Positions 3,158-49,378 of a stretch of 64,000 bases of DNA are shown here, piece after piece. The position numbers and the translations under genes are program-made. Below the pieces are notes generated by a model. The model searched no databases, had not been told where the DNA came from, and saw only the letters and a list, made by a program, of their open reading frames with translations. The first letter of the stretch is position 1. Each line of letters opens with the position of its first letter. Source of the DNA: Candidatus Jorgensenbacteria bacterium (GTDB lineage: Bacteria > Patescibacteriota > Minisyncoccia > UBA6257 > GWB1-50-10); NCBI GenBank assembly GCA_030648515.1, contig JAUSHK010000005.1:48383-112382 (forward strand), given 5' to 3'.

Positions 3158-3892
3158 CTACATCTCCGCTTCTTTTCTTAAGATATAGTTGGTGGACATA
3201 TCACCGCCGTCAACTGTAATAGTAGTGCCGTTTATATAACTTGATTTATCAGAGAGCAAAAAACTTACAACTTGAGCGATTTCCTCGTAGGTGCCGACTC
3301 TCTTAAGCGGATTAAGCGACGCGACTTCCTTAAGCAGTTCTTTCGGAGCTCCCATGCCGCCACCTATCCACCCGGGGGCAATGGCGTTCGTTCGTATCTT
3401 TTTCGGAGCGAGAATATTAGCAAGGCTTTGGGTTATATTAATGAGGGCTGCTTTGCTTGCGGAATAAGCCATGCCTGAAAAAGAACCAATCATGCCGTCG
3501 GTGCTTGAAATATTTACAATTGAAGCATCTTTTTCAAGATTTTCTTTTAAACCCTCTATTAATAAAAGCGGGGCATTTAAGTTAATCTCAAAAGTTTTTT
3601 CCCATACTTTCATATCAAAATTATTAAGGTCAACATCAATAAAAACGCCCGCACTATTCACGATTCCCTTGAAACGAAATTTGCCTAATTTTTGTATTAA
3701 AGCTTCTGTATTTTTCCTGTTGCTGAAATCACATTGAAACATCTCAATGTTTTTAAGTTTATTCTTGAGCTTCTCGGCTTCTTCTTTTCCCGTGTTATAA
3801 ATTCCATACACAAAATAACCCTCTTTTACCAAAAGTTGCGCGACTGCCTTACCCATTCCACTTGATACGCCGGTTACGAGAATGTTTTTCAT
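3158..3892 (-). CDS. Short-chain dehydrogenase/reductase (SDR) family oxidoreductase
   Basis: TGVSSGMGKA glycine-rich NAD(P)-binding motif at the N-terminus; catalytic YxxxK (YSASK). 244 aa. Confidence 0.8.
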   Translation of the reverse strand: MKNILVTGVSSGMGKAVAQLLVKEGYFVYGIYNTGKEEAEKLKNKLKNIEMFQCDFSNRKNTEALIQKLGKFRFKGIVNSAGVFIDVDLNNFDMKVWEKTFEINLNAPLLLIEGLKENLEKDASIVNISSTDGMIGSFSGMAYSASKAALINITQSLANILAPKKIRTNAIAPGWIGGGMGAPKELLKEVASLNPLKRVGTYEEIAQVVSFLLSDKSSYINGTTITVDGGDMSTNYILRKEAEM

Positions 3893-3917: not shown

Positions 3918-4382
3918 TTATAAAATTTTAAGTTCGGAGAGCCATTCTTTCCAGACGGGTTCTATGCCGGGCGATGATTGCCACTCCGTTTCGCTTATTT
4001 TCCCCAAAATATAGTTTTCTGTTCTCTCGGCAAGTTTGCGAATTTGCTCTTTTGTATACCAGCCGTATTGCTTGGTTTCACTTGGGCTTGCTGTAACCTT
4101 CCCTTCTGTTTTCACTTCAAAGATTTTCCAGTAATGCCATGTGCCGTCCTCGCGCCTGCAAGGATTTTCTTTTCTGCCTTCGGCAAGTAATGTAATTTTT
4201 TTGGCATTGAGACCAACTTCTTCTTCAACTTCCTTCCGTGCCGCATCTTCAAAAGACCCATGGTCGTCAATGTGGCCGGCGGGAGGAGCAAAACCATACG
4301 GCGGCTTGCGCCGTTCAATAAGAAGTAGTTTGTCGCCATCCCAAATAAGCATTCCGACGCTTTTATGGTCGCAAATCGCCAT
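3918..4382 (-). CDS. Nudix hydrolase
   Basis: Nudix-box-like segment GHIDDHGSFEDAARKEVEEEVGL. 154 aa. Its stop lies 1 nt from the start of the upstream gene (4384), suggesting translational coupling. Confidence 0.6.
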   Translation of the reverse strand: MAICDHKSVGMLIWDGDKLLLIERRKPPYGFAPPAGHIDDHGSFEDAARKEVEEEVGLNAKKITLLAEGRKENPCRREDGTWHYWKIFEVKTEGKVTASPSETKQYGWYTKEQIRKLAERTENYILGKISETEWQSSPGIEPVWKEWLSELKIL

Positions 4383-4383
4383 A

Positions 4384-4791
4384 TTACGCTATTTTTGTAA
4401 GGTCGCCGTTCAGTACGACTGGCTCAACTGTCAGTATCTCGTCCTCAATATATTTTTGGCTGGGAATTGCGTTTAATAGATAGATTTTCTTATCCCGATA
4501 GTGCGCGAAACCAACTTCAAGAAACGTGTTTGCCCCGATGTAATTTTCAACTTCCCCTTTCGTAATATTCATGACAAGAATGGCGTCTGATTTTTCTATT
4601 TTATCCATGTGTTCCGATATAAGCCCCAATTTCTTTTTTGCCTGAACCCGGCCGGCATTATCCTTAGACCAATAATCAACGCCGTCGGCTTTTATTGGCA
4701 TGAGAACTGTGTGGCCCATTTGCTCAAGCTTACCTTTCACTCCGAGCATTTGGTCAAAGAATTTTATAGATCCGCAAACGGTAATAGTCAT
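4384..4791 (-). CDS. Nucleoside 2-deoxyribosyltransferase-like / LOG-like (SLOG-type Rossmann) small protein, paralog 1
   Basis: 135 aa. Motif NYIGANTFLEVGFA...KKIYLLN resembles the GxT(A/F)xExG(Y/F)A glycine-rich site of the NDT/LOG clan. Clear paralog of 16002..16412. Confidence 0.5.
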   Translation of the reverse strand: MTITVCGSIKFFDQMLGVKGKLEQMGHTVLMPIKADGVDYWSKDNAGRVQAKKKLGLISEHMDKIEKSDAILVMNITKGEVENYIGANTFLEVGFAHYRDKKIYLLNAIPSQKYIEDEILTVEPVVLNGDLTKIA

Positions 4792-10471: not shown

Positions 10472-11395
10472 TCAATCAAAAATATTAATGAGATATGCGT
10501 CAATGTCTCTCTGGTCCATATCGTAAAAATTCAGTTTGTTGTCATGGAGATACGTTGCGAATTTTACGCCTACAAAGCGCCAATGCCACGGCTCGTAGAC
10601 GTAGTGGGTATTGCCTTTCGGATAAGAAATCTCAAAGCCAAAACGATACGCATTAGCGAGAAGCCATTGATAGGCCTGCGTGTTTTCAAAGCCCTCGGTT
10701 TGGCCGCCAAGTCCGGTAGTGATGAAATCCAATGTCGTTCCAAGCTGGTGCTCTGAATAACCCTGGTCCGCCGCGAACGAGTTGGCGGTGCCTGCGCCGT
10801 AAATAACGGTATATAAAGATTTAAGCGATTGCTGTTCTGCAAACGACCGGTAAGCGGATTCCGCGTAGAGCGCAATTCCGTTTGATTTTGCCGCATCAAA
10901 TAAGTTTTTAAGAAACGGCCATGCCTCCGTTAGGAATTGTTCCGAACTTGATTCCTTGTATAAATAATCGGCCGGCATACTAATCAGGTGCGGCGGCGTA
11001 TAATTTTCATTCAAAAAATATACTTTGGAATATTTTTTGAGAAGTTCAGGGTCAATTTTTGAAAGTTTTTGAAGCGTGCCGACGGTGCCGGAAATTGAAC
11101 CGACGGTCTGTTCAACTCCGCCAACCTGCGTTTTAACGGCGTCAATATTTTGCTGAGCGCTTGAGAGCGTATCGGAAAGTCCGGTGGTTTGCGAGCGCAG
11201 GTCCGCAAGATTTTTCGCAAGCTGGCCCGTATTCTGTGATAGCGTCGCGGTTGTAGACGCGAACTCCGTTGTAAGAGACCCTATCTGTTCCGTTAACGCG
11301 GAAATCCGCAGAAACCCGTAAACAAAAAGGCCGCCGAGCACGACAAAAACAATCCCTGCGGGGATTATATACGGCAAAAATCTTTTATATCCCAC
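10472..11395 (-). CDS. D-alanyl-D-alanine carboxypeptidase, VanY / peptidase M15B family, with N-terminal TM and coiled-coil repeat region
   Basis: Motifs YRSFAEQ, SEHQLGTTLD and YEPWHWRF (VanY zinc-binding H/D/H context). Confidence 0.7.
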   Translation of the reverse strand: MGYKRFLPYIIPAGIVFVVLGGLFVYGFLRISALTEQIGSLTTEFASTTATLSQNTGQLAKNLADLRSQTTGLSDTLSSAQQNIDAVKTQVGGVEQTVGSISGTVGTLQKLSKIDPELLKKYSKVYFLNENYTPPHLISMPADYLYKESSSEQFLTEAWPFLKNLFDAAKSNGIALYAESAYRSFAEQQSLKSLYTVIYGAGTANSFAADQGYSEHQLGTTLDFITTGLGGQTEGFENTQAYQWLLANAYRFGFEISYPKGNTHYVYEPWHWRFVGVKFATYLHDNKLNFYDMDQRDIDAYLINIFD

Positions 11396-18590: not shown

Positions 18591-19112
18591 TTAATTAAGT
18601 GCAGTAAGGTATTTATTTCTTACCCACTTCAAATTCGGGAAATAAAACGAAAAAATCCCAAGCGGTGTTATGATGAATAGCTGTTTTAGCTTTTCTTTGA
18701 AATCCCTTTTAAAACTGAATTTCGTCACTATAATTTGTCCATTAAAAAGCTTTTTAGCAGAAAGTTTTACAACGCTCGCGTATGCCTCTCCGCAAAAAAT
18801 AATAATTTCGTTTTCAATTGTAATATTGAACATTTCAATTTTTTCCAAATTTTTCCGTGCGGATTCCAGCTCTTCGGTGATTGCTGAATTGTTTCCCATT
18901 TCTAAAACGGTTCTGCCCATACTAAGCGACTCGTATTTTAGCAATAAACTTTTTAGTTTTTCTTCTTTTGGAACTGACTCTGCGCCTGTTTCAACAATTA
19001 TCATCCTCGTTGCGACATACGTCTTCATTTGCTCGGTAATAAAATCTACGAATCTTAAACGCTTTTCCAGGTTATTAAATCCGTTTCCTATCACAATAAC
19101 AAATTTTGCCAT
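18591..19112 (-). CDS. Hypothetical protein in AT-rich island
   Basis: 173-aa ORF, low GC. Followed by a structured 3' region and a strong terminator. Confidence 0.4.
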   Translation of the reverse strand: MAKFVIVIGNGFNNLEKRLRFVDFITEQMKTYVATRMIIVETGAESVPKEEKLKSLLLKYESLSMGRTVLEMGNNSAITEELESARKNLEKIEMFNITIENEIIIFCGEAYASVVKLSAKKLFNGQIIVTKFSFKRDFKEKLKQLFIITPLGIFSFYFPNLKWVRNKYLTALN

Positions 19113-29293: not shown

Positions 29294-30442
29294 TTACAGA
29301 GTTTTAAAAAGATTCAGTACGTCTCTCGCGGTTTTCTCCCACGAGAATCTTTTCGCGTTTTCAAATCCTTTTTCAATATAGCGCGAACGCACTGACGCAT
29401 TTCCAATAACCGCCTCAAGCGCCGCAATCTGCTCGTCTATATTCCACGGATCAACCAACAGCGCGGAATCCCCGAGAACTTCAGGTGTGGACGACCTGTT
29501 TGAGGCAACAACCGGCGCGCCGCACATTTGCGCCTCAAGCGGCGGAAAACCGAACCCTTCAAAAAAAGACGGGTAGAGAAGCGCTTCGCACGCATTATAG
29601 AGGCACGTGAGTTCTTCATAATTTCCGTCGCCCCACAAAACAATATCGTCCTTCGCGCGCGAATCGGTAATCTCTCTAAAAATTGTATCATAGCTCCATC
29701 CTTTCCGCCCCACGAACACTAGTTTTAAATCGTGAAATGCCGGTTTTGATTTCAACACGGAGAACGAACGGATGATGCTCGCGACATTTTTTCGCGGCTC
29801 AAGAACACCTACAAAAAGAATGAACGGCTGTTTGAGGCCGTGCCGCGCGCGGAAATCATCAACGGCTTCTTTGCTTACTTTTTTGTACGCGGGATTTATT
29901 CCCGGATAGATGACGGCAACTTTTTCTTTAGGAACACGCAGGGTTTGCACGATATCGCGCGCGGTGAAATGTGAGACAGTCAGGATTGCGCTCGCTTCGT
30001 CCGCTCCGCGCTTATAACGCTGGAGAACGTGCCACAAGCGCGCGCGCCATGAATAAAACTCGGGGAAATGAAGAAATGAGAGGTCGTGGAATGTGATGAT
30101 TCGTTTTGATTTCCGCGATGTTGAAAGCAAATTGATGTTTGGGCTTAAAACAATATCTGCTTGTGCCTTTCGATCAAGAAATGGGCGATGAAACACGATG
30201 TTTGAAAAATCAAGAAACTTGTTCGGCATCCGCCACGCGAGCCGCGAAGCATTCGTTTTGCTTTCAAACGTTTCCGGAAAAAACGGCTTTCTTAGGCCAT
30301 TTGTAAAAAAGATGTAATGGTTTTCATGGTCCGCCGCGAGGAGATGCTCGGACAAAAGCCGCGTGTATTCCTCTACGCCGGATTTTCTCCCCTTGCCCAG
30401 CACGCGGGCGTCAATCAAGATACGGAGCGGCGTACGGCTCAT
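29294..30442 (-). CDS. Glycosyltransferase family 4 (GT-B, retaining)
   Basis: C-terminal [20 protein letters not shown] (E-x7-E motif). Overlaps the next GT4 gene by 4 nt. Confidence 0.75.
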
Positions 30443-31563
30443 ACGATATTAGTCGGCTCACTATCAACGCAGAAACCGCACTTCCCGAGTTTCTTAATGA
30501 AATTCTTTTTGAAGTTCTCTTTTGAAAATCTCTGGGCATGGTGCGCGATGTACGTTCTGTCCCATTTTATGCCATCGCTTTCATGTATCGCCCTTATAAC
30601 CGCGTCAGTGGTTTGTTTATCAAACAAAAGTCCCGTGCGGCGCATTTCTACAATCTCTGGGCCACCGCCGACGTTATACGCGATAACCGGCACTCCGCAT
30701 GCTTGCGCTTCGGCCGCGACAAGCCCGAAGTCCTCAATCTGCGGAAAGATAAACGCTTTCGCGTTGCTGTAGAGCCGGCGCAATTCTTCATCCTCCGGAT
30801 GTTTTATAAAAGAAACATAGTTCGGATCCGCAATCTGCTTCAATTTTTCAAATTCGGGACCCATGCCAATAATTTTTAATTTCTTTCGCAGTTTGTTGCA
30901 CGCGAGAATTCCAAGGTCAAACCGCTTGTAATACAGGAGACGTCCCGCCATCATGTAATATTCTTCGCTATTTATTACGTTGCGCTCGGGATAAAACGTT
31001 TTTACGTCAACTGGCGGATATATGACTTCCGCATTGCGCTTATAGTACGCGCGCACTTTTTCACCGATGTATGAGGAGTCCGCAAAAAACACATTTACGC
31101 GCGATGAGCTTTTTACATCCCATGCACGAAGCCATTTCGCAATCGGCCGAATCACCATTTCTTTCAATGGCCACGGCGAGAACGGCAAATCCTTAAGATA
31201 ATCAATTTCCCACGCGTACCGGAGCGGACTCAGGCAATAGCAAACGTGGTACGGCGACTCAACGCGGAATCCTTTTCCATAGCCAGCGGTTGAGGAAATT
31301 ACTAAATCGTATTTTTCTTTTGATTTTAAAAAGCGCGACGCGAGCGGCATAAATGGAATAAACATCCGATGCTTTCGGCGTACGAACGGAATATTTAAAA
31401 AACTGACTTTCTTTATATTGTTTTCAAACTTTCCGAACGTCCGCGCTTTGTCATAGAGTAAAGTATAAATATCCGCTGACGGAAAAATTTCAAGCAGAAC
31501 TTCCAGCACGCGTTCGGCTCCCCCATATTGGTTTAAATAATCATGTAAAATCGCAACGCGCAT
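30439..31563 (-). CDS. Glycosyltransferase family 4 (GT-B)
   Basis: EDFGLVAAEAQACGVPVIAY motif. 374 aa. Confidence 0.75.
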   Translation of the reverse strand: MRVAILHDYLNQYGGAERVLEVLLEIFPSADIYTLLYDKARTFGKFENNIKKVSFLNIPFVRRKHRMFIPFMPLASRFLKSKEKYDLVISSTAGYGKGFRVESPYHVCYCLSPLRYAWEIDYLKDLPFSPWPLKEMVIRPIAKWLRAWDVKSSSRVNVFFADSSYIGEKVRAYYKRNAEVIYPPVDVKTFYPERNVINSEEYYMMAGRLLYYKRFDLGILACNKLRKKLKIIGMGPEFEKLKQIADPNYVSFIKHPEDEELRRLYSNAKAFIFPQIEDFGLVAAEAQACGVPVIAYNVGGGPEIVEMRRTGLLFDKQTTDAVIRAIHESDGIKWDRTYIAHHAQRFSKENFKKNFIKKLGKCGFCVDSEPTNIV

Positions 31564-31677: not shown

Positions 31678-31872
31678 TTAGTGAGTTGCTTTTAAGATGC
31701 CGGCAAGAATGAAAAAGAAGCCGACTATCATCCCAAACGCAGGCCATGGAATTTGGAGAGTGTCTGCTGCACAAAATCCTGAAATTATAAGCAAACCTCC
31801 TACTAAAATGAGGGTAGGAAATTTTGTAGAAGATTCTATCTTTCCAATTTTGATTTTCTTTATTCTCACCAT
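31678..31872 (-). CDS. Small 2-TM membrane protein within the glycan operon
   Basis: 64-aa hydrophobic ORF between GT4 and the sugar transferase; the alternative-frame ORF 31631..31903 is less protein-like. Confidence 0.35.
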   Translation of the reverse strand: MVRIKKIKIGKIESSTKFPTLILVGGLLIISGFCAADTLQIPWPAFGMIVGFFFILAGILKATH

Positions 31873-31969: not shown

Positions 31970-32560
31970 CTACACCCCCGTCGGGTCAGAGAAGAAAATC
32001 CAGATAGTTTTGAAGAGAATCTTAATATCCAGCCAGCATGATTTGTGCTCGGCATAATATTCGTCAAATTCAAGCTCTTTGCGGAACGGAAGAGACGAGG
32101 CGCCGTTCACCTGCGAAAGCCCTGTGAGTCCCGCCTTTGTGAAACGGAGGTTTTTAAACTCCAGCGGATAGGCATCAATTTCCTCCGGTTCGTGCGGGCG
32201 CGGGCCGACGAGCGAAAGGTTGCCCATGAGTACATTAAAGAATTGCGGGAACTCATCCAGGCGAAACCTGCGCAGAAACTTCCCTACTTTTGTAAGGCGC
32301 GGGTCATTTTTAATTTTAAAAAGCGGGCCGTCGGTCCGCTCATTCAAATGCGCGAGTTCTTTTTTCTTTTCGCGCGCGTTTTTTACCATCGAGCGGAATT
32401 TATAAACTTTTATAATCTTTCCTTCACTTACCCTATCGAGCGCGACAAAAATCGGAAACCCGGTTTCTAATACAATGGCGAAACCGACAAATGGAGTGAG
32501 TACAATAGTTAAGCAGGTTCCAACTAGCCCGCATATTACATCAATGAGCCGTTTTAACAT
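31970..32560 (-). CDS. Polyprenyl-phosphate sugar phosphotransferase (bacterial sugar transferase, WbaP/PglC-like small form)
   Basis: KFRSM...DGPLFKIKNDPRLTKVGKFLRRFRLDEFPQFFNVLMGNLSLVGPRP is the PF02397 core. Confidence 0.8.
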   Translation of the reverse strand: MLKRLIDVICGLVGTCLTIVLTPFVGFAIVLETGFPIFVALDRVSEGKIIKVYKFRSMVKNAREKKKELAHLNERTDGPLFKIKNDPRLTKVGKFLRRFRLDEFPQFFNVLMGNLSLVGPRPHEPEEIDAYPLEFKNLRFTKAGLTGLSQVNGASSLPFRKELEFDEYYAEHKSCWLDIKILFKTIWIFFSDPTGV

Positions 32561-33231
32561 TACAAAATTACGATAACAAACTCTCCTTTTTCCTTTTCGC
32601 CCTTAAAATGGAGGAGCGCGGATTCAAGCGTTCCACTAAAAATGTCTTCATGGATTTTAGTGAGTTCTCTGCCAACGACTATCGCGTGTTCTTTTCCATA
32701 AACAACCGACAAACTCTCCAGCGCTTTCCTTGCGCGAAACGGGGATTCGTAGAACACGACGGGGCGGGCTTCAATTTCCTTTGTCTTTTTGAAAAACGTT
32801 TCGCGCCCCTTTTTGTGCGGGGCGTATCCTAAAAACGTGAACTCCCCCGCCGAAATTCCAGAAACGGAAAGTATTGAAGTGATTGCTGAAGCGCCCGGGA
32901 TTGGAACAATTAAGATTTTTATATCTTGTTCACGCAGAAATTTAACTAGCTTTGAACCCGGGTCTGAAATTCCCGGCGTGCCGGCGTCCGATACAAATGC
33001 GATGTTTTCGCCATGTACTAGGCGTTCCTTAACTGATTCAAAGAAAGATGCGTTTGCGTATTCATCGCACCGCAGAATTGGCTTTTTGATTTCATAGCGG
33101 TCAAGAAGTTTTTTCGTCACGCGCGTGTCCTCGGCTAAAATAACATTAACGCTTTTAAGCGTTTCAATCGCCCGTATTGAAATATCGCCTAAGTTTCCTA
33201 TCGGCGTCGCAACAATGTATAAAGTGCCCAT
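32560..33231 (-). CDS. rsmI: 16S rRNA (cytidine1402-2'-O)-methyltransferase
   Basis: TPIGNLGDIS and DTRVT N-terminal motifs of the tetrapyrrole-methylase-fold RsmI. 223 aa. Confidence 0.8.
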   Translation of the reverse strand: MGTLYIVATPIGNLGDISIRAIETLKSVNVILAEDTRVTKKLLDRYEIKKPILRCDEYANASFFESVKERLVHGENIAFVSDAGTPGISDPGSKLVKFLREQDIKILIVPIPGASAITSILSVSGISAGEFTFLGYAPHKKGRETFFKKTKEIEARPVVFYESPFRARKALESLSVVYGKEHAIVVGRELTKIHEDIFSGTLESALLHFKGEKEKGEFVIVIL

Positions 33232-33281
33232 AGGAAAAGTATATTGTGTTTTGGATTAAAATAATAGTTCGACTTCGCTCA

Positions 33282-33317
33282 CTATAATAAAAACAGGGCG
33301 GAGATGTTTTTCCGCCC
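33282..33317 (-). terminator. Rho-independent terminator (GGGCGGA-loop-TCCGCCC followed by T-run), copy 1 of 3 related hairpins
   Basis: Minus strand: GGGCGGAAAAACATCTCCGCCC then TGTTTTTATTAT. Immediately after the stop of small ORF 33329..33493. Confidence 0.6.
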
Positions 33318-33328
33318 ATTATCTTTAT

Positions 33329-33493
33329 TTAACCACCACACCTAAATGAGTTTTTTGTGAAATTTACGGTGGTTATATTTCCACAAAACGGAACGCATCT
33401 GAATGTGCCTTTGTTGCCCGAAAATTTCTCTTGTTTATTTTTCGGGACTACCCTCCGAGAACATTCGGGTGGGTTTTTATCTTTTTTCTCCAT
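33329..33493 (-). CDS. Small basic Cys-containing protein, 54 aa (MEKKDKNPPECSRRVVPKNKQEKFSGNKGTFRCVPFCGNITTVNFTKNSFRCGG)
   Basis: Hand-translated, not in the ORF track. Canonical AGGAGG Shine-Dalgarno 6 nt upstream of ATG; own terminator. 4 Cys. Confidence 0.45.
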   Translation of the reverse strand: MEKKDKNPPECSRRVVPKNKQEKFSGNKGTFRCVPFCGNITTVNFTKNSFRCGG

Positions 33494-33572
33494 TTGTTCC
33501 TCCTTCCTGTTTTATTTTTAGATTCCTTATGTTTCTTATATTAATCTAAACTCCAAAATTTCATGTGTCAAT

Positions 33573-33606
33573 TAATAATAAAATGTGGGCGGAGAATATA
33601 TCCGCC
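33573..33606 (-). terminator. Rho-independent terminator (GGGCGGA-loop-TCCGCCC plus T-run), copy 2
   Basis: Minus strand: GGGCGGATATATTCTCCGCCC then ACATTTTATTATTA. Abuts the stop of small ORF 33610..33817. Confidence 0.5.
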
Positions 33607-33609
33607 CAA

Positions 33610-33817
33610 TTTACAGCTCGGAGATTGATGGAACTTCGCGGGGAAGAGGAGGATTTTTGGATATTTCTTTTATGAGCTCAGCCATCCCCGGTGGAAATTT
33701 TCCTCTAAAATTCCTTAAAAAAGCTTTTCTAACACCTTTTCTGCGCGCCGTTTCCGCGGTCTGTGTGTCTTCAGAGAGCCGCGTTGTCGCATTACCACTA
33801 TTCGATTTTGGGCTCAT
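33610..33817 (-). CDS. Small basic hypothetical protein, 68 aa
   Basis: Track ORF 33611..33817. AAGGAGAGG Shine-Dalgarno 5 nt upstream of ATG; own hairpin terminator. Confidence 0.45.
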
Positions 33818-33880
33818 TTTTCCTCTCCTTTTAAATTATTTTCGGTTATTGTGTTCTGCTTTAAGTCTAGCTGTTTGAAC

Positions 33881-33910
33881 AATAAATACAAACCGCCCAC
33901 GAATGGGCGG
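33881..33910 (-). terminator. Rho-independent terminator of rplS (CCGCCCA-TTCG-TGGGCGG plus T-run), copy 3 of the GGGCGG hairpins
   Basis: Minus strand: hairpin directly after the rplS stop, followed by TTTGTATTTATT. Confidence 0.6.
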
Positions 33911-33911
33911 C

Positions 33912-34244
33912 TTATTTTGCCTCTTCTGTTTTCTTTAAACGTTCTCTGGCTTTCTTGCTTGAAAATCCTCTAAGGAAGTAAAGCTTTGCGCGGTGAACTT
34001 TCTTGGGCGAGGAAATAACATCAACTTTTGCGATTGACGGAGAATGAATCGGAAACACTTTTTCAACCCCTATCTCGTCAAGCACTGCGCGGACGGTGAA
34101 CGTGGCGCCGGATTCTTTTCCGTGTTTGCGCGCAAGCACCGTGCCCTCAAATGCCGACAGGCGCTCTTTGTCGCCTTCTTTTACCTTTTCCCAGACGCGG
34201 ACTTTCGCGCCCGGTTTGATTTTTTCCATTATTGTTTGATCCAT
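33912..34244 (-). CDS. rplS: 50S ribosomal protein L19
   Basis: VRVWEKVKEGDKERLSAFEGTVLARKHG and PSIAKVDVI segments are diagnostic for bL19. 110 aa. Confidence 0.85.
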   Translation of the reverse strand: MDQTIMEKIKPGAKVRVWEKVKEGDKERLSAFEGTVLARKHGKESGATFTVRAVLDEIGVEKVFPIHSPSIAKVDVISSPKKVHRAKLYFLRGFSSKKARERLKKTEEAK

Positions 34245-34257
34245 AATTCGTTTTTCA

Positions 34258-34286
34258 AGTTTACCTCGCTTTTCTCAAATCGTCAA
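34258..34286 (-). promoter_or_regulatory. Candidate sigma70-type promoter for rplS (TTGACG-17 nt-TAAACT)
   Basis: Minus strand: -35 TTGACG at 34281-34286, 17-nt spacer, -10 TAAACT at 34258-34263, 13 nt before the ATG. Confidence 0.3.
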
Positions 34287-34366
34287 CCCCGATTAGAAAT
34301 ACCCGCCCCGGGGCAGCTCCGCTGTTTTTATAGAAAGGCGATTTCTAACGGGGCAGGGAAACGCTG

Positions 34367-35092
34367 TTATTTGTTTCGTAAGGTGTTGAGAAAAGACGAC
34401 AATTCATCTGGTAACGCGCTTTCAATCCGCAGGCGCTTGCCGTCAGCTTTTATAAACTCTATCGCCGACGCGTGCAAAAACTGGCGGTTCAGTCCGAACG
34501 GATTATCTCTCGGCCCATACAGCTTATCGCCCACAATTGGATGCTTTATTGACGCAAGATGAACGCGAATCTGGTGAGTCCTCCCTGTTTTTGGCGTAAT
34601 TTTAAGCAATGTTGTTTCTGAGAACTGTTCCATTGGGGAATATTCAGTAACGGCATCTTTTATCATCTTCATATTTCTCGCGTTCACGCTTCGGCGCGTT
34701 GACCCTGAACGGAGCCCGATTGGCTTATTAATTATGCCGTGTCCCTCAATCTTTCCGCGGACAAGCCCGATATATTCCTTTTTAACCTCGTGGTTTTGGA
34801 ATTGTTTCTTTAAAAGATCAAAAAATATCTGCGTGCGGGCAACCACCACAATACCGGACGTTTCTTTGTCCAGCCGGTGCACGATTCCATAGCGCTCCAA
34901 CTCGTCATGGTTTTTGTCCGTGTCTCCAATGTCCAGCACTTCCGGGTACCGTTTAAGAATCCAATCAACAAGCGTTTCCTCGCTTGTATGGGCGTCTTTT
35001 GCAATTCCGCCCCTTGTTTTATGCACTAAAACCCCAGACGGTTTGTTTACAGCAACGAAATCTTTGTCCTCATAGATAACCTTTATTTCCAC
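34367..35092 (-). CDS. RluA-family pseudouridine synthase (RluD-like)
   Basis: VHRLDKETSGIVVVART catalytic-Asp motif. 241 aa. Confidence 0.8.
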   Translation of the reverse strand: MEIKVIYEDKDFVAVNKPSGVLVHKTRGGIAKDAHTSEETLVDWILKRYPEVLDIGDTDKNHDELERYGIVHRLDKETSGIVVVARTQIFFDLLKKQFQNHEVKKEYIGLVRGKIEGHGIINKPIGLRSGSTRRSVNARNMKMIKDAVTEYSPMEQFSETTLLKITPKTGRTHQIRVHLASIKHPIVGDKLYGPRDNPFGLNRQFLHASAIEFIKADGKRLRIESALPDELSSFLNTLRNK

Positions 35093-35224
35093 TGTTTAAG
35101 TATGCACGAAAGTGCGAAAAATGCAATAAAAACGAGGTTTTTAGCCCATTTTCATACCCCCTTGATTTTTCTAGAACTATGTGCTAGTATATGACTATAC
35201 ACCCTTAGGTCCGGGTGTTTTTAT

Positions 35225-35641
35225 ATGGAAACAATTTTACCGGCACTTATTAGTTTTGTTATGGCAATTTCACCGCAGACCGCGGGGATTTCTGCCACAA
35301 CGCAAATCTCAATCCCTATAGTTCAGGCCGCGCAGGAGCGCGTTTCTGCTCCCCGCATTTTTGACGTGTGGGTTACCGCATACTCAAGCTCACAGGATGA
35401 AACCGACAGCACTCCTAATATAACAGCTTCAAACAAAGCGCCACACGACGGCGTGCTTGCCGCAAACTTTCTTAAGCTTGGTGAGAAGGTAAAAATTCCG
35501 TCTCTCTTTGGCGACAAAATTTTTACCGTTGAGGACCGCATGAACAAACGCAAAAAGAACTTTGTTGACATCTGGATGCCAACAAAACAGGACGCGCTTA
35601 AGTTCGGCATCGCGAAAGCGGATATTGTACTTGTAGATTAG
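35225..35641 (+). CDS. Secreted 3D-domain protein (MltA/YuiC-like cell-wall-associated domain)
   Basis: Signal peptide; YSSSQDETDSTPNITASN ... LAAN ... FTVEDRM ... VDIWM pattern with the three conserved Asp. Confidence 0.45.
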   Translation: METILPALISFVMAISPQTAGISATTQISIPIVQAAQERVSAPRIFDVWVTAYSSSQDETDSTPNITASNKAPHDGVLAANFLKLGEKVKIPSLFGDKIFTVEDRMNKRKKNFVDIWMPTKQDALKFGIAKADIVLVD

Positions 35642-48106: not shown

Positions 48107-49378
48107 TTAGGAAATCGTGTCGTACTCGCGAACTGTGAGTTGAGAATCCACTTGCTTCATAATTTCAAGAGCGACTCCGACAACAATTAAAAGTGCTGCA
48201 CCGCCGACTGTGAATACCTCGAGGCCCGTAAGCATCTGCGTTATGTTTGGGAGAATTGCGATGATACCAAGAAAGATCGCGCCGAAAAACGTTGTCCTGC
48301 GCGTAATCGCAGCAATAACATCCGATGTGGACTGCCCGGGCCTGATTCCTGGGATAAACCCGCCGCTTTGCTGGAGATTTTTTGAAATTTCCTTCGGATC
48401 AAACGTGACCGCCGTGTAGAAATAAGTAAACAAGAACACGAGAACGAAATATATTCCGCTGTATAAAAACTGGTTATTGAAAATCGCCGTAACAATCTCG
48501 TTTAAGCGCAGCGATAGATTGCTTGAAAATACAGAGCTCGCCTGCGCGATAAATTGCGGGAAAAGCAAAATGGAAATTGCAAAGATAATCGGAATCATTC
48601 CGGCTTGGTTCACCTTGAGCGGAAGATATGTTGAAACGCCGCCGTACATTTTATTGCCGCGAACTTGCTTTGCGTATGTTACAGGAACTTTTCGCTCGCC
48701 TTCGTTTACGAAAACCGTCGCAGCTGTAACAATTACTCCCAACACTATAAATATGAGGTATGTCGGAAGCACTGATGGGTTGTAGTTTAAAAACGCGTTT
48801 GCGGCGGTACTGGGAATTGAACTTACAATTCCGGCAAGAATAAGAAGCGATATGCCGTTTCCGATGTTGTATTCAGAGATGAGCTCACCAATCCACATAA
48901 GGAGGAGACTGCCGGCCGTGATGATAATTACGTTTGCTGCGGTGTTAAAGAAGTCCAGACGCGTAACCACGCCCTGCGACATAAGGAGGTTTAAAAAACC
49001 GTATCCTTGGAGTAAAGCGATTGGAACCGTTATCCAGCGAGAATAGCGGTTGAATTTTGCACGGCCTTCTGCGCCCTCTTCGTAGTACGCTTTTTTAAGC
49101 GACGGGAAGATGATGGTCAAAAGCTGCATGATGATTGTTGAAGTAATATACGGGCCCAAGCCAAGCATTATAATGGAGAGGTTATTAAGCCCTCCGCCTG
49201 AGAAAATATTAAGAAAACCGAATAATTGGTTTGATGAGAGAAAGTCTTGGAGACGGATAGCATCAACTCCAGGAATTGGAATTGCCGCTAGAATCCGGAA
49301 CACAACAAGCCACATAATGACCATCAGGACTTTTCTACGCAGATCCGGGATTTTAAAGATTTTTAAGAATTTTTGCAT
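48107..49378 (-). CDS. secY: Preprotein translocase subunit SecY
   Basis: 10-TM profile and position after rplO. 423 aa. Confidence 0.85.
   Translation of the reverse strand: MQKFLKIFKIPDLRRKVLMVIMWLVVFRILAAIPIPGVDAIRLQDFLSSNQLFGFLNIFSGGGLNNLSIIMLGLGPYITSTIIMQLLTIIFPSLKKAYYEEGAEGRAKFNRYSRWITVPIALLQGYGFLNLLMSQGVVTRLDFFNTAANVIIITAGSLLLMWIGELISEYNIGNGISLLILAGIVSSIPSTAANAFLNYNPSVLPTYLIFIVLGVIVTAATVFVNEGERKVPVTYAKQVRGNKMYGGVSTYLPLKVNQAGMIPIIFAISILLFPQFIAQASSVFSSNLSLRLNEIVTAIFNNQFLYSGIYFVLVFLFTYFYTAVTFDPKEISKNLQQSGGFIPGIRPGQSTSDVIAAITRRTTFFGAIFLGIIAILPNITQMLTGLEVFTVGGAALLIVVGVALEIMKQVDSQLTVREYDTIS

Follow-up and report, generated by a model that had tools for sequence, protein, structure and literature searches.

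On the minus strand of a 64,000-nucleotide stretch of the genome of a Candidatus Jorgensenbacteria bacterium (assembly GCA_030648515.1, contig JAUSHK010000005.1, positions 48,383 to 112,382; hereafter the window, in whose own numbering all coordinates are given), the spacer between rplS and rsmI holds two small open reading frames (ORFs), of 68 and 54 codons, here called p68 and p54. The gene order on that strand is an RluD-like pseudouridine synthase gene (34367-35092, upstream of rplS), rplS (33912..34244; ribosomal protein bL19, 110 aa; Pfam Ribosomal_L19 E 5.9e-30, TIGR01024 above cut-off), p68, p54 and, as the downstream neighbour, rsmI (32560-33231; encoding an rRNA methylase, 223 aa; Pfam TP_methylase E 1.5e-29). 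A Logan contig of 13.4 kb, reaching about 5-8 kb to each side, is identical to the window at this locus. A first-pass annotation had proposed that the spacer is built of tandem modules, each with a strong Shine-Dalgarno (SD) site, a small basic ORF and a hairpin terminator, and that these encode real small proteins. Comparison with related genomes suggests, with moderate confidence, that p54 and p68 are two clade-restricted, independently transcribed orphan small-protein genes lodged in the rplS–rsmI spacer.

Architecture of the two units

Both mini-genes are present as ORFs, each with a promoter-like site, an SD site and a terminator of its own. The p68 ORF (33611..33817, minus strand; 68 aa) encodes a protein with an isoelectric point (pI) of 10.6 and is preceded by the SD site AAGGAGAGG, AAGGAG(AGG), at 33822..33830 (minus strand). 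A candidate promoter, TTAAAG-N18-AATAAT (33835..33864, minus strand), can be proposed upstream of it, which a consensus scan did not find, and the unit is closed by terminator A, UGGGCGGA-N7-UCCGCCCA with a U-rich tail (33575..33608, minus strand), whose stem also occurs in two related species. The p54 unit opens with the promoter-like site TTGACA-N17-TAGATT (33543..33571, minus strand; 10 of 12 consensus matches), followed by the SD site AAGGAGG (33499..33505, minus strand), 5 nt upstream of the ATG, and by the p54 ORF itself (33329..33493, minus strand; 54 aa), whose product has a pI of 9.9, contains four cysteines and ends in CGG, as had been described. It is closed by terminator B, GGGCGGA-N8-UCCGCCC followed by UGUUUUUAUU (33284..33317, minus strand). 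Both ORFs are longer than would be expected from dinucleotide shuffling of the respective module (P ~0.01 for p68 and ~0.02 for p54). The view that the two products had no annotation is correct for p54, which is unannotated in this genome, and does not apply to p68, which is in NCBI as hypothetical protein Q7R98_02735, with AAB503_01280 as a related label.

Each unit thus has a promoter resembling the sigma-70 type, a short leader that carries a canonical SD site, an ORF for a small basic hydrophilic protein and a Rho-independent terminator directly past the stop codon, the anatomy of two monocistronic minus-strand units that would be transcribed separately from rplS and rsmI. For rsmI, a TATACT box ends 6 nt upstream of the ATG, and its mRNA is likely to be leaderless. 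An 18-nt direct repeat, TTAA(T/A)(C/G)CA(A/G)AACACAATA, lies on the minus strand upstream of both rsmI (33242-33259) and p68 (33847-33864) and is also kept in a close relative; the sequence upstream of p68 may have arisen by partial duplication of the rsmI promoter region, unless the repeat is a chance match.

The SD sites of the two mini-ORFs stand out against their genomic background. An SD core of at least 5 nt precedes only 6 of the 63 long ORFs in the window and none of the genes of the ribosomal-protein operon (52-58 kb), while a TATAAT-like box ending 5-12 nt upstream of the start codon was seen at 17 of 72 genes, which suggests that leaderless or very short-leader mRNAs may be widespread in this Jorgensenbacteria genome. 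The presence of a canonical SD site at p54 and p68 fits their having a leader, unlike most genes of the genome. The first-pass annotation had called these the best SD sites in the window: they are of a rare type and among the top few, yet they rank about second to fourth, since the ORF at 18591-19112 is preceded by the stronger AGGAGGTG. Most window genes lack any SD site (for example upstream of 3158-3892, 10472-11395, 48107-49378, 30439-31563 and 32560-33231). As a separate observation, an unclassified 64-aa ORF (31678-31872, minus strand) with the strong SD site AAAGGAGG lies in a 406-nt gap downstream of a Bac_transf gene, and its product resembles a two-helix membrane peptide (MVRIKKIKIGKIESSTKFPTLILVGGLLIISGFCAADTLQIPWPAFGMIVGFFFILAGILKATH).

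A duplicated terminator

The three minus-strand hairpins with T-rich tails that had been reported in this region are all present. The hairpin behind rplS (33915-33888, CCGCCCA-ttcg-TGGGCGG), which constitutes its intrinsic terminator GCCGCCCA-uucg-UGGGCGG, extends to 12 bp with its flanks (-19.2 kcal/mol); that of the p68 unit spans 33608-33586 (-15.3 kcal/mol) and that of the p54 unit 33317-33296 (GGGCGGA-N8-TCCGCCC, -14.6 kcal/mol). Their folding z-scores range from -3.5 to -4.8, the lowest being that of rplS, their tails are T/U-rich (UUUGUAUUUAUU, (CA)UUUUAUUAUU and UGUUUUUAUU, respectively), and they begin 0-12 nt past the stop codons, so that all three show the GC-rich stem-loop and U-tract past a stop codon by which Rho-independent terminators are recognized. 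In these respects they resemble canonical terminators of this type, with GC-rich stems of 7-12 bp, loops of 4-8 nt and U-rich tails right after the stop codons. The rplS terminator resembles them also in its compensatory stem changes between species: the stem reads CCGC-CCA/UGG-GCGG in the window and in its closest relative and CCGC-UCC/GGA-GCGG in a more distant one, that is, two compensatory double changes that preserve pairing. Terminators A and B have stems that do not vary among relatives and hold no covariation information.

The hairpins had also been regarded as related to each other. This is true of the two GGGCGGA copies, which belong to a duplicated terminator segment of about 35 nt (repeat D1, spacing 291), but not of the rplS hairpin, whose arms run in reverse order and which does not represent a further copy. 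The pattern GGGCGG-N3-12-CCGCCC occurs twice in the 64 kb against 0.03 expected, both occurrences being the hairpins of the p68 and p54 units, and of about ten loci with perfect-stem terminator-like hairpins in the whole window, three fall within these 630 nt. The p54 unit is thus enclosed by two copies of one terminator; the use of the same stem by two adjacent units is what sets the arrangement apart from otherwise ordinary Rho-independent terminators. The description of the units as tandem modules holds for their architecture and for this duplicated terminator, but the unit bodies are unrelated: comparison of p54 with p68 gave a local DNA score not above shuffles (P 0.09), a protein score with P 0.30 and an hhalign probability of 0.2%. 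A tandem duplication of the whole module, or paralogy of p54 and p68, was rejected, with nothing alike beyond the SD site and the terminator.

Conservation of the locus in related genomes

Among 80 loci retrieved from GTDB species genomes with the rplS protein as query, rsmI lies downstream of rplS only in the six closest. The first of these, a Hainich aquifer metagenome-assembled genome (MAG; locus L001, rplS identity 88%), carries a single unit, consisting of a 72-aa p68 orthologue with SD site and conserved C-terminus, a GGGCGGA…TCCGCCC terminator and then rsmI; the p54 unit is absent. Two further loci from JGI metagenomes (L093 and L094) have exactly the layout of the window, in the order rplS terminator (identical), 69-aa p68 orthologue, GGGCGGA terminator, TTGACA-N17-TAGATT, GGAAGGAG, 54-aa ORF, GGGCGGA terminator and rsmI, and in L093 the loops of the two GGGCGGA terminators are also alike. 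The synonymous divergence (dS) of rsmI is 0.40 between the window and L093 and 0.78-0.86 with L001 as outgroup, and on this ground the window and L093 appear to be sisters and L001 their outgroup. Gain of the p54 unit in the ancestor of the window and L093, or its loss in L001, would be equally parsimonious. Ten contigs of the L001 species are essentially identical and offer no population variation to use. As far as these genomes indicate, p54 and p68 are restricted to a very narrow clade of Jorgensenbacteria.

The expression signals of both units are kept in the nearest relatives that carry them. The -35 and -10 hexamers of p54 are identical in L093 and L094 and its SD core is conserved in L093 as GGAAGGAG, with terminator B likewise kept there. 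For p68, the GGAG core of the SD site is kept in L093 (GGGAGGGG) and L001 (AAGGAGAA), the AATAAT of the candidate promoter in all three species, and the window and L093 share 92% identity over the stretch that runs from the rplS terminator to the p68 start. The p68 orthologues (72 aa in L001, recorded as P0002, and 69 aa in L093) occupy the same position beside rplS and share the SD site, an N-terminal LSDxTQ, the C-terminal motif and the terminator. Taken together, the window and L093 share 83-94% identity in their promoter hexamers, SD cores and terminators, and the proportion of synonymous differences (pS) in rsmI is 0.31; the signals at p54 and p68 are therefore more conserved than the synonymous sites of rsmI. 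The expectation that the frames would be found open in related genomes, with start codon, SD-like sequence, promoter-like boxes and terminator conserved, is borne out for p68 in three species and for p54 in two.

Constraint on the encoded proteins

The p68 frame is open in all three species at 58-76% nucleotide identity and despite several length differences, which are whole codons under a protein-guided codon alignment. The neutral probability that no stop codon would arise is 0.15-0.2 per pair, and the amino-acid changes, set against a transition-aware neutral expectation, gave P values of 0.003-0.1 by pair, which are somewhat optimistic as the alignment was protein-guided. Constraint is clearest at the C-terminus, where the last 23 codons of the window and L001 copies differ with a nonsynonymous proportion (pN) of 0.077 vs a pS of 0.29, and where the segment ELIKEISKxPPLPR is held. 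These observations make it very likely that p68 is translated. The window copy has diverged very fast: on the window branch its nonsynonymous divergence (dN) is about 0.3 vs a dS of about 0.24 for rsmI on the same branch, by hand arithmetic on pairwise values.

An HMMER search with p54 through all 1.84 billion representatives returned one true relative, P0003, an IMG hypothetical protein of 54 aa with 65% identity (E 5e-15). It is the product of the 54-aa ORF of L093 and L094, and the two copies of p54 type thus occupy the same locus. A second match, P0004 (530 aa, E 4.8e-4), consists of about nine tandem copies of …YCRHLSQHRFTKSSLCSGGSSVDLEERACLV… and gave eight repeated weak matches to p54 residues 32-54; it was judged a repeat artefact. 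Between p54 and P0003, length, start and stop are identical, and there are no insertions or deletions over 165 nt, whereas the flanking non-coding segments have gaps. The Nei-Gojobori (NG86) omega is 0.34, and 27 of the 32 differences are transitions (27:5). Purifying selection on the ORF as a whole, as this omega would imply, was not retained, since the signal is gone once the transition bias is modelled and the C-terminal half alone holds. In that half (codons 28-54), 12 nucleotide differences cause 4 amino-acid changes where 7.8 would be expected (P 0.009), a value like those of 27-codon windows of rsmI; for rsmI itself, as a control, the same test gave P < 1e-4. The segment held is TFRCxPFCGNIxTVNFTKNSFRxGG. 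Codons 1-27 show no constraint, with 15 amino-acid changes against 12.2 expected. On this evidence p54 is likely to be translated. Both proteins thus appear to be fast-evolving, with N-terminal and central parts changing at about the neutral rate and the C-terminal parts alone constrained.

Several results weigh against reading p54 and p68 as two protein-coding genes. Over the whole p54 ORF, 19 amino-acid changes were counted against 20.1 expected in a simulation that keeps the bias (P 0.39), so that there is no net constraint, and the neutral probability that the ORF would remain intact is 0.28. Codon usage, expressed as a log-likelihood ratio per codon, places p54 (-0.05) with spurious out-of-frame ORFs (-0.09, sd 0.08) and p68 (+0.04) between these and chunks of real genes (+0.17, sd 0.08). 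No exact entry for p54 was found in the protein collection, NCBI included, and it is not among the genes called on the Logan contig. AlphaFold2 modelling of p54 with its orthologue gave a predicted local distance difference test score (pLDDT) of 51, with no secondary structure and no confident fold, and neither protein shows similarity to any family that would hint at a function. The conservation of the C-terminal part of p54 could be due in part to an RNA hairpin over its stop codon, which is described below. With no more than two or three independent sequences in each family, all selection tests are weak. Lastly, the sampling of p68 homologues may be incomplete, because the word-index protein search, which for p68 returned only P0001 and P0002 and missed the 69-aa L093 orthologue, also missed P0003 for p54: it gave no p54 candidate although P0003 is in the collection and shares many 5-residue words, which is a failure of sensitivity. 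Negatives of this search are weak for short proteins, and this includes the two-member size of the p68 family.

Some of these results would also be expected if one or both ORFs were transcribed but functionless, that is, neutral proto-genes or decaying insertions still open by chance in a few close genomes. The lack of net constraint on p54 and its neutral chance of staying open, the near equality of p68 dN and rsmI dS on the window branch, the absence of the p54 unit from L001, the fact that the slot is empty or otherwise filled in other Jorgensenbacteria, and the atypical codon usage all agree with such a view. On the other hand, promoter hexamers, SD cores and terminators are kept at 83-94% identity against 31-51% divergence at synonymous positions in the adjacent gene, fewer amino-acid changes than expected have accumulated in the C-terminal segments of both proteins, and three p68 orthologues hold the frame through several length changes. 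Atypical codon usage, moreover, is as compatible with young or foreign genes as it is with non-genes. An explanation without function is accordingly considered rather unlikely, and two orphan small-protein genes are still preferred.

An RNA hairpin at the end of p54

RNAalifold analysis of the two p54 transcripts predicted a 10-bp hairpin, UAACCACCGU ... GUGGUGGUUA (33330..33375, minus strand), in which 33375-33366 pair with 33339-33330 and which spans p54 codons 40-43 and 52-54 together with the stop codon. It is present in the minimum free energy (MFE) fold of both species. The stem has undergone four substitutions with pairing kept in all, namely one compensatory A-U to G-C pair, the 5' side of which is the non-synonymous change T41A, and two one-sided wobble-compatible changes. 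Including its terminator, the p54 transcript folds better than shuffles (z -4.05); without it the values are unremarkable (z -1.65 for the window copy and -0.99 for that of L093), and the other structure of the window copy is not kept in L093.

These features raise the question whether the p54 unit is mainly a structured small RNA, about 250 nt long, composed of promoter, stop-codon hairpin and terminator and perhaps dual in function, with the ORF and its CGG end largely a by-product of the stem. Dual-function small RNAs (sRNAs) that carry a small ORF include SgrS/SgrT, RNAIII/hld and SR1/SR1P. Like these, the p54 unit would be a short, independently transcribed RNA ending in a terminator, with a small ORF and a conserved hairpin; unlike them, no target or seed region was identified for it, there is no Rfam match, and its structural signal consists of one hairpin in two sequences. 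The folding of the complete transcript, the preservation of the hairpin through four substitutions including the compensatory T41A pair, the greater conservation of promoter and leader than of rsmI synonymous sites, and codon usage that is not gene-like are consistent with an RNA role. Against this, the fold is not significant once the terminator is removed, the remaining hairpins of the window copy are lost in L093, three of the four stem changes are tolerated singly as wobbles so that covariation amounts to one pair in two sequences, and a purely RNA role would leave a strong, conserved SD site at working distance from a conserved ATG unexplained. No Rfam family matches either: in an Rfam 15 scan of 32000-35500, the sole hit was a chance-level STnc280 inside rsmI (E 0.69, 23 bits vs a gathering score of 80). 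A structured 3' end of the p54 mRNA is thus plausible; a gene that acts as RNA alone is not the favoured reading, and a unit that acts chiefly as RNA seems unlikely.

Family searches and the cysteines of p54

Neither p54 nor p68 nor their orthologues matched any Pfam or NCBIfam family above cut-off, profile searches of the PDB returned nothing at E < 0.49, and PHROGs and PADLOC gave nothing at E < 0.01. The suggestion that the proteins might be recognized among ribosomal-protein families was thus not substantiated in Pfam, NCBIfam or the PDB. No DNA match was found in 50,697 phage records, nor any relative in viral contigs, and an origin from a mobile element or phage is unsupported, there being no second copy in the window or in the 90+ fetched loci and both p54-type copies lying at one locus. 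Two ORFs on the opposite strand, of 97 aa (33585-33878, plus strand) and 54 aa (33357-33521, plus strand), were rejected as real genes, as they have no SD site and their lengths are not kept in L093 and L001; the 54-aa one, antisense to p54, is 33 aa in L093. In the literature, no paper was found on Jorgensenbacteria small proteins.

The four cysteines of the window copy had prompted the idea that p54 is a cysteine-based peptide, either a zinc-binding mini-protein or a modified peptide, which would here mean a RumC-like sactipeptide precursor, a ribosomally synthesized and post-translationally modified peptide (RiPP). In its favour, p54 residues 25-48 give a weak match to NCBIfam RumC_sactiRiPP (E 0.0036, 17.2 bits), the short CVxxCGN...V...N motif recalls RumC-family sactipeptides (NF035950), and the CxxxCGN motif is kept in P0003. 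The score, however, is far under the curated cut-off of 40, the orthologue P0003 has no match, p54 has no leader or cleavage motif, and no radical-SAM, peptidase or ABC-exporter Pfam hit is on record for the genes of the 13.4-kb contig around the locus, so that the RumC/RiPP identity, sub-threshold, absent in the orthologue and with no maturase on that contig, was rejected. Zinc binding by four cysteines fares no better, as only C33 and C37 are conserved, C11 being replaced by R and C52 by S in P0003, and the conserved pair is of the CxxxC and not the CxxC type; with two of four cysteines not conserved and no two CxxC-type pairs, this identity was likewise rejected. A cysteine-based function for p54 is largely refuted and must be regarded as highly improbable.

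Nature and possible role of p54 and p68

p54 and p68 are placed among lineage-specific small hypothetical proteins of an ordinary kind. They share with orphan entries of this type (Q7R98_02735 / AAB503_01280 and IMG P0003) that all are small, domain-free and confined to a few closely related MAGs; in fact p68 is such an NCBI entry itself, with P0002 as its orthologue and P0003 as that of p54, the difference being that p54 itself is unannotated in this genome. With regard to function, at low confidence, these basic and probably disordered proteins may bind nucleic acid or the ribosome through their conserved C-terminal motif, a partner that is suggested by their charge and their translation-gene neighbourhood and by nothing else. 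In this regard they are comparable to small basic ribosome-associated proteins such as bS22/Sra, bL37 and bTHX, which are of about 25-70 aa, strongly positively charged and without a recognizable fold, and p54 and p68 also sit among translation genes (rluD-like, rplS and rsmI). They differ from them in that their sequences resemble no ribosomal family in Pfam, NCBIfam or the PDB, and from structural components of the ribosome in being found in two or three species and in evolving in a near-neutral manner over half their length. As to origin, they may be young or captured orphan genes that were inserted into a spacer of only about 50 nt in some relatives.

What fills this slot depends on the lineage: p68 together with p54, or elsewhere a 42-aa protein under strong constraint, an ORF of 85 aa, one of 192 aa, or nothing at all. 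In L002 (rplS identity 77%), the gap between rplS and rsmI is about 50 nt and amounts to a terminator and a TATACT box. A 42-aa basic ORF lies there in L003 and L005 (rplS 75-76%), with a distant variant of it in L004 (rplS 80%); L003 (rplS 76%) additionally holds the 85-aa ORF, and L006 (rplS 73%) the 192-aa ORF.

The 42-aa ORF deserves separate mention. It is very basic (MKQHAKVGNRPGRPTYRTPAVFRYQQYLKTKSAKSKARFR(S/Q)K), lies directly upstream of rsmI (L003 2642-2767, L005 1689-1814 and L004 4427-4537), and in L003 its stop codon overlaps the rsmI start (ATGA). The L003 and L005 copies differ at 14 nucleotides, of which 11 are single third-position changes and 3 fall in one altered codon, giving 1 amino-acid change against 9.2 expected (P < 1e-4); because of this deficit it is taken to be a real gene under strong constraint, and no Pfam or NCBIfam family was found for it. 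In L005, a truncated duplicate of the rsmI 5' end (MGTLYVVGTPIGP…, 1818-1945) precedes the intact rsmI, the two being separated by about 90 nt that apparently contain short palindromes, which suggests a small insertion into the start of the rsmI gene with the start regenerated. In L004, the small basic ORF is flanked by inverted repeats, ACAACCTACAACC and GGTTGTAGGTTGT (4329-4341 and 4564-4576), inside longer GTTGT-rich tracts, which hints at a hairpin-bounded cassette or one resembling a miniature inverted-repeat transposable element (MITE).

It could be envisaged from this variety that the rplS–rsmI spacer of Jorgensenbacteria repeatedly serves as a landing pad, or cradle, for genes of small basic proteins, and that p54 and p68 are clade-specific accessory proteins acting on the ribosome or rRNA, as bS22, bL37 and THX do in other phyla, caught soon after their birth or capture. 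This is a speculative and quite unlikely extension of the data; if true, p54 and p68 would be clade-specific proteins that work on the ribosome or rRNA.

Implications

The families described here are tiny, their architecture is entirely conventional and the comparative depth is thin. Nevertheless, if both peptides are made, they would add two unclassified small-protein families, one of which (p54) was missed by gene callers, to a lineage of the candidate phyla radiation (CPR) with an essentially unexplored small proteome. Their neighbours are translation genes, and the genome around them largely does without Shine-Dalgarno sites. The locus also represents a compact natural example of what would be young, fast-evolving genes whose expression signals are complete and conserved and whose terminator is duplicated, which may be useful for studying the rise or capture of small genes in reduced genomes.

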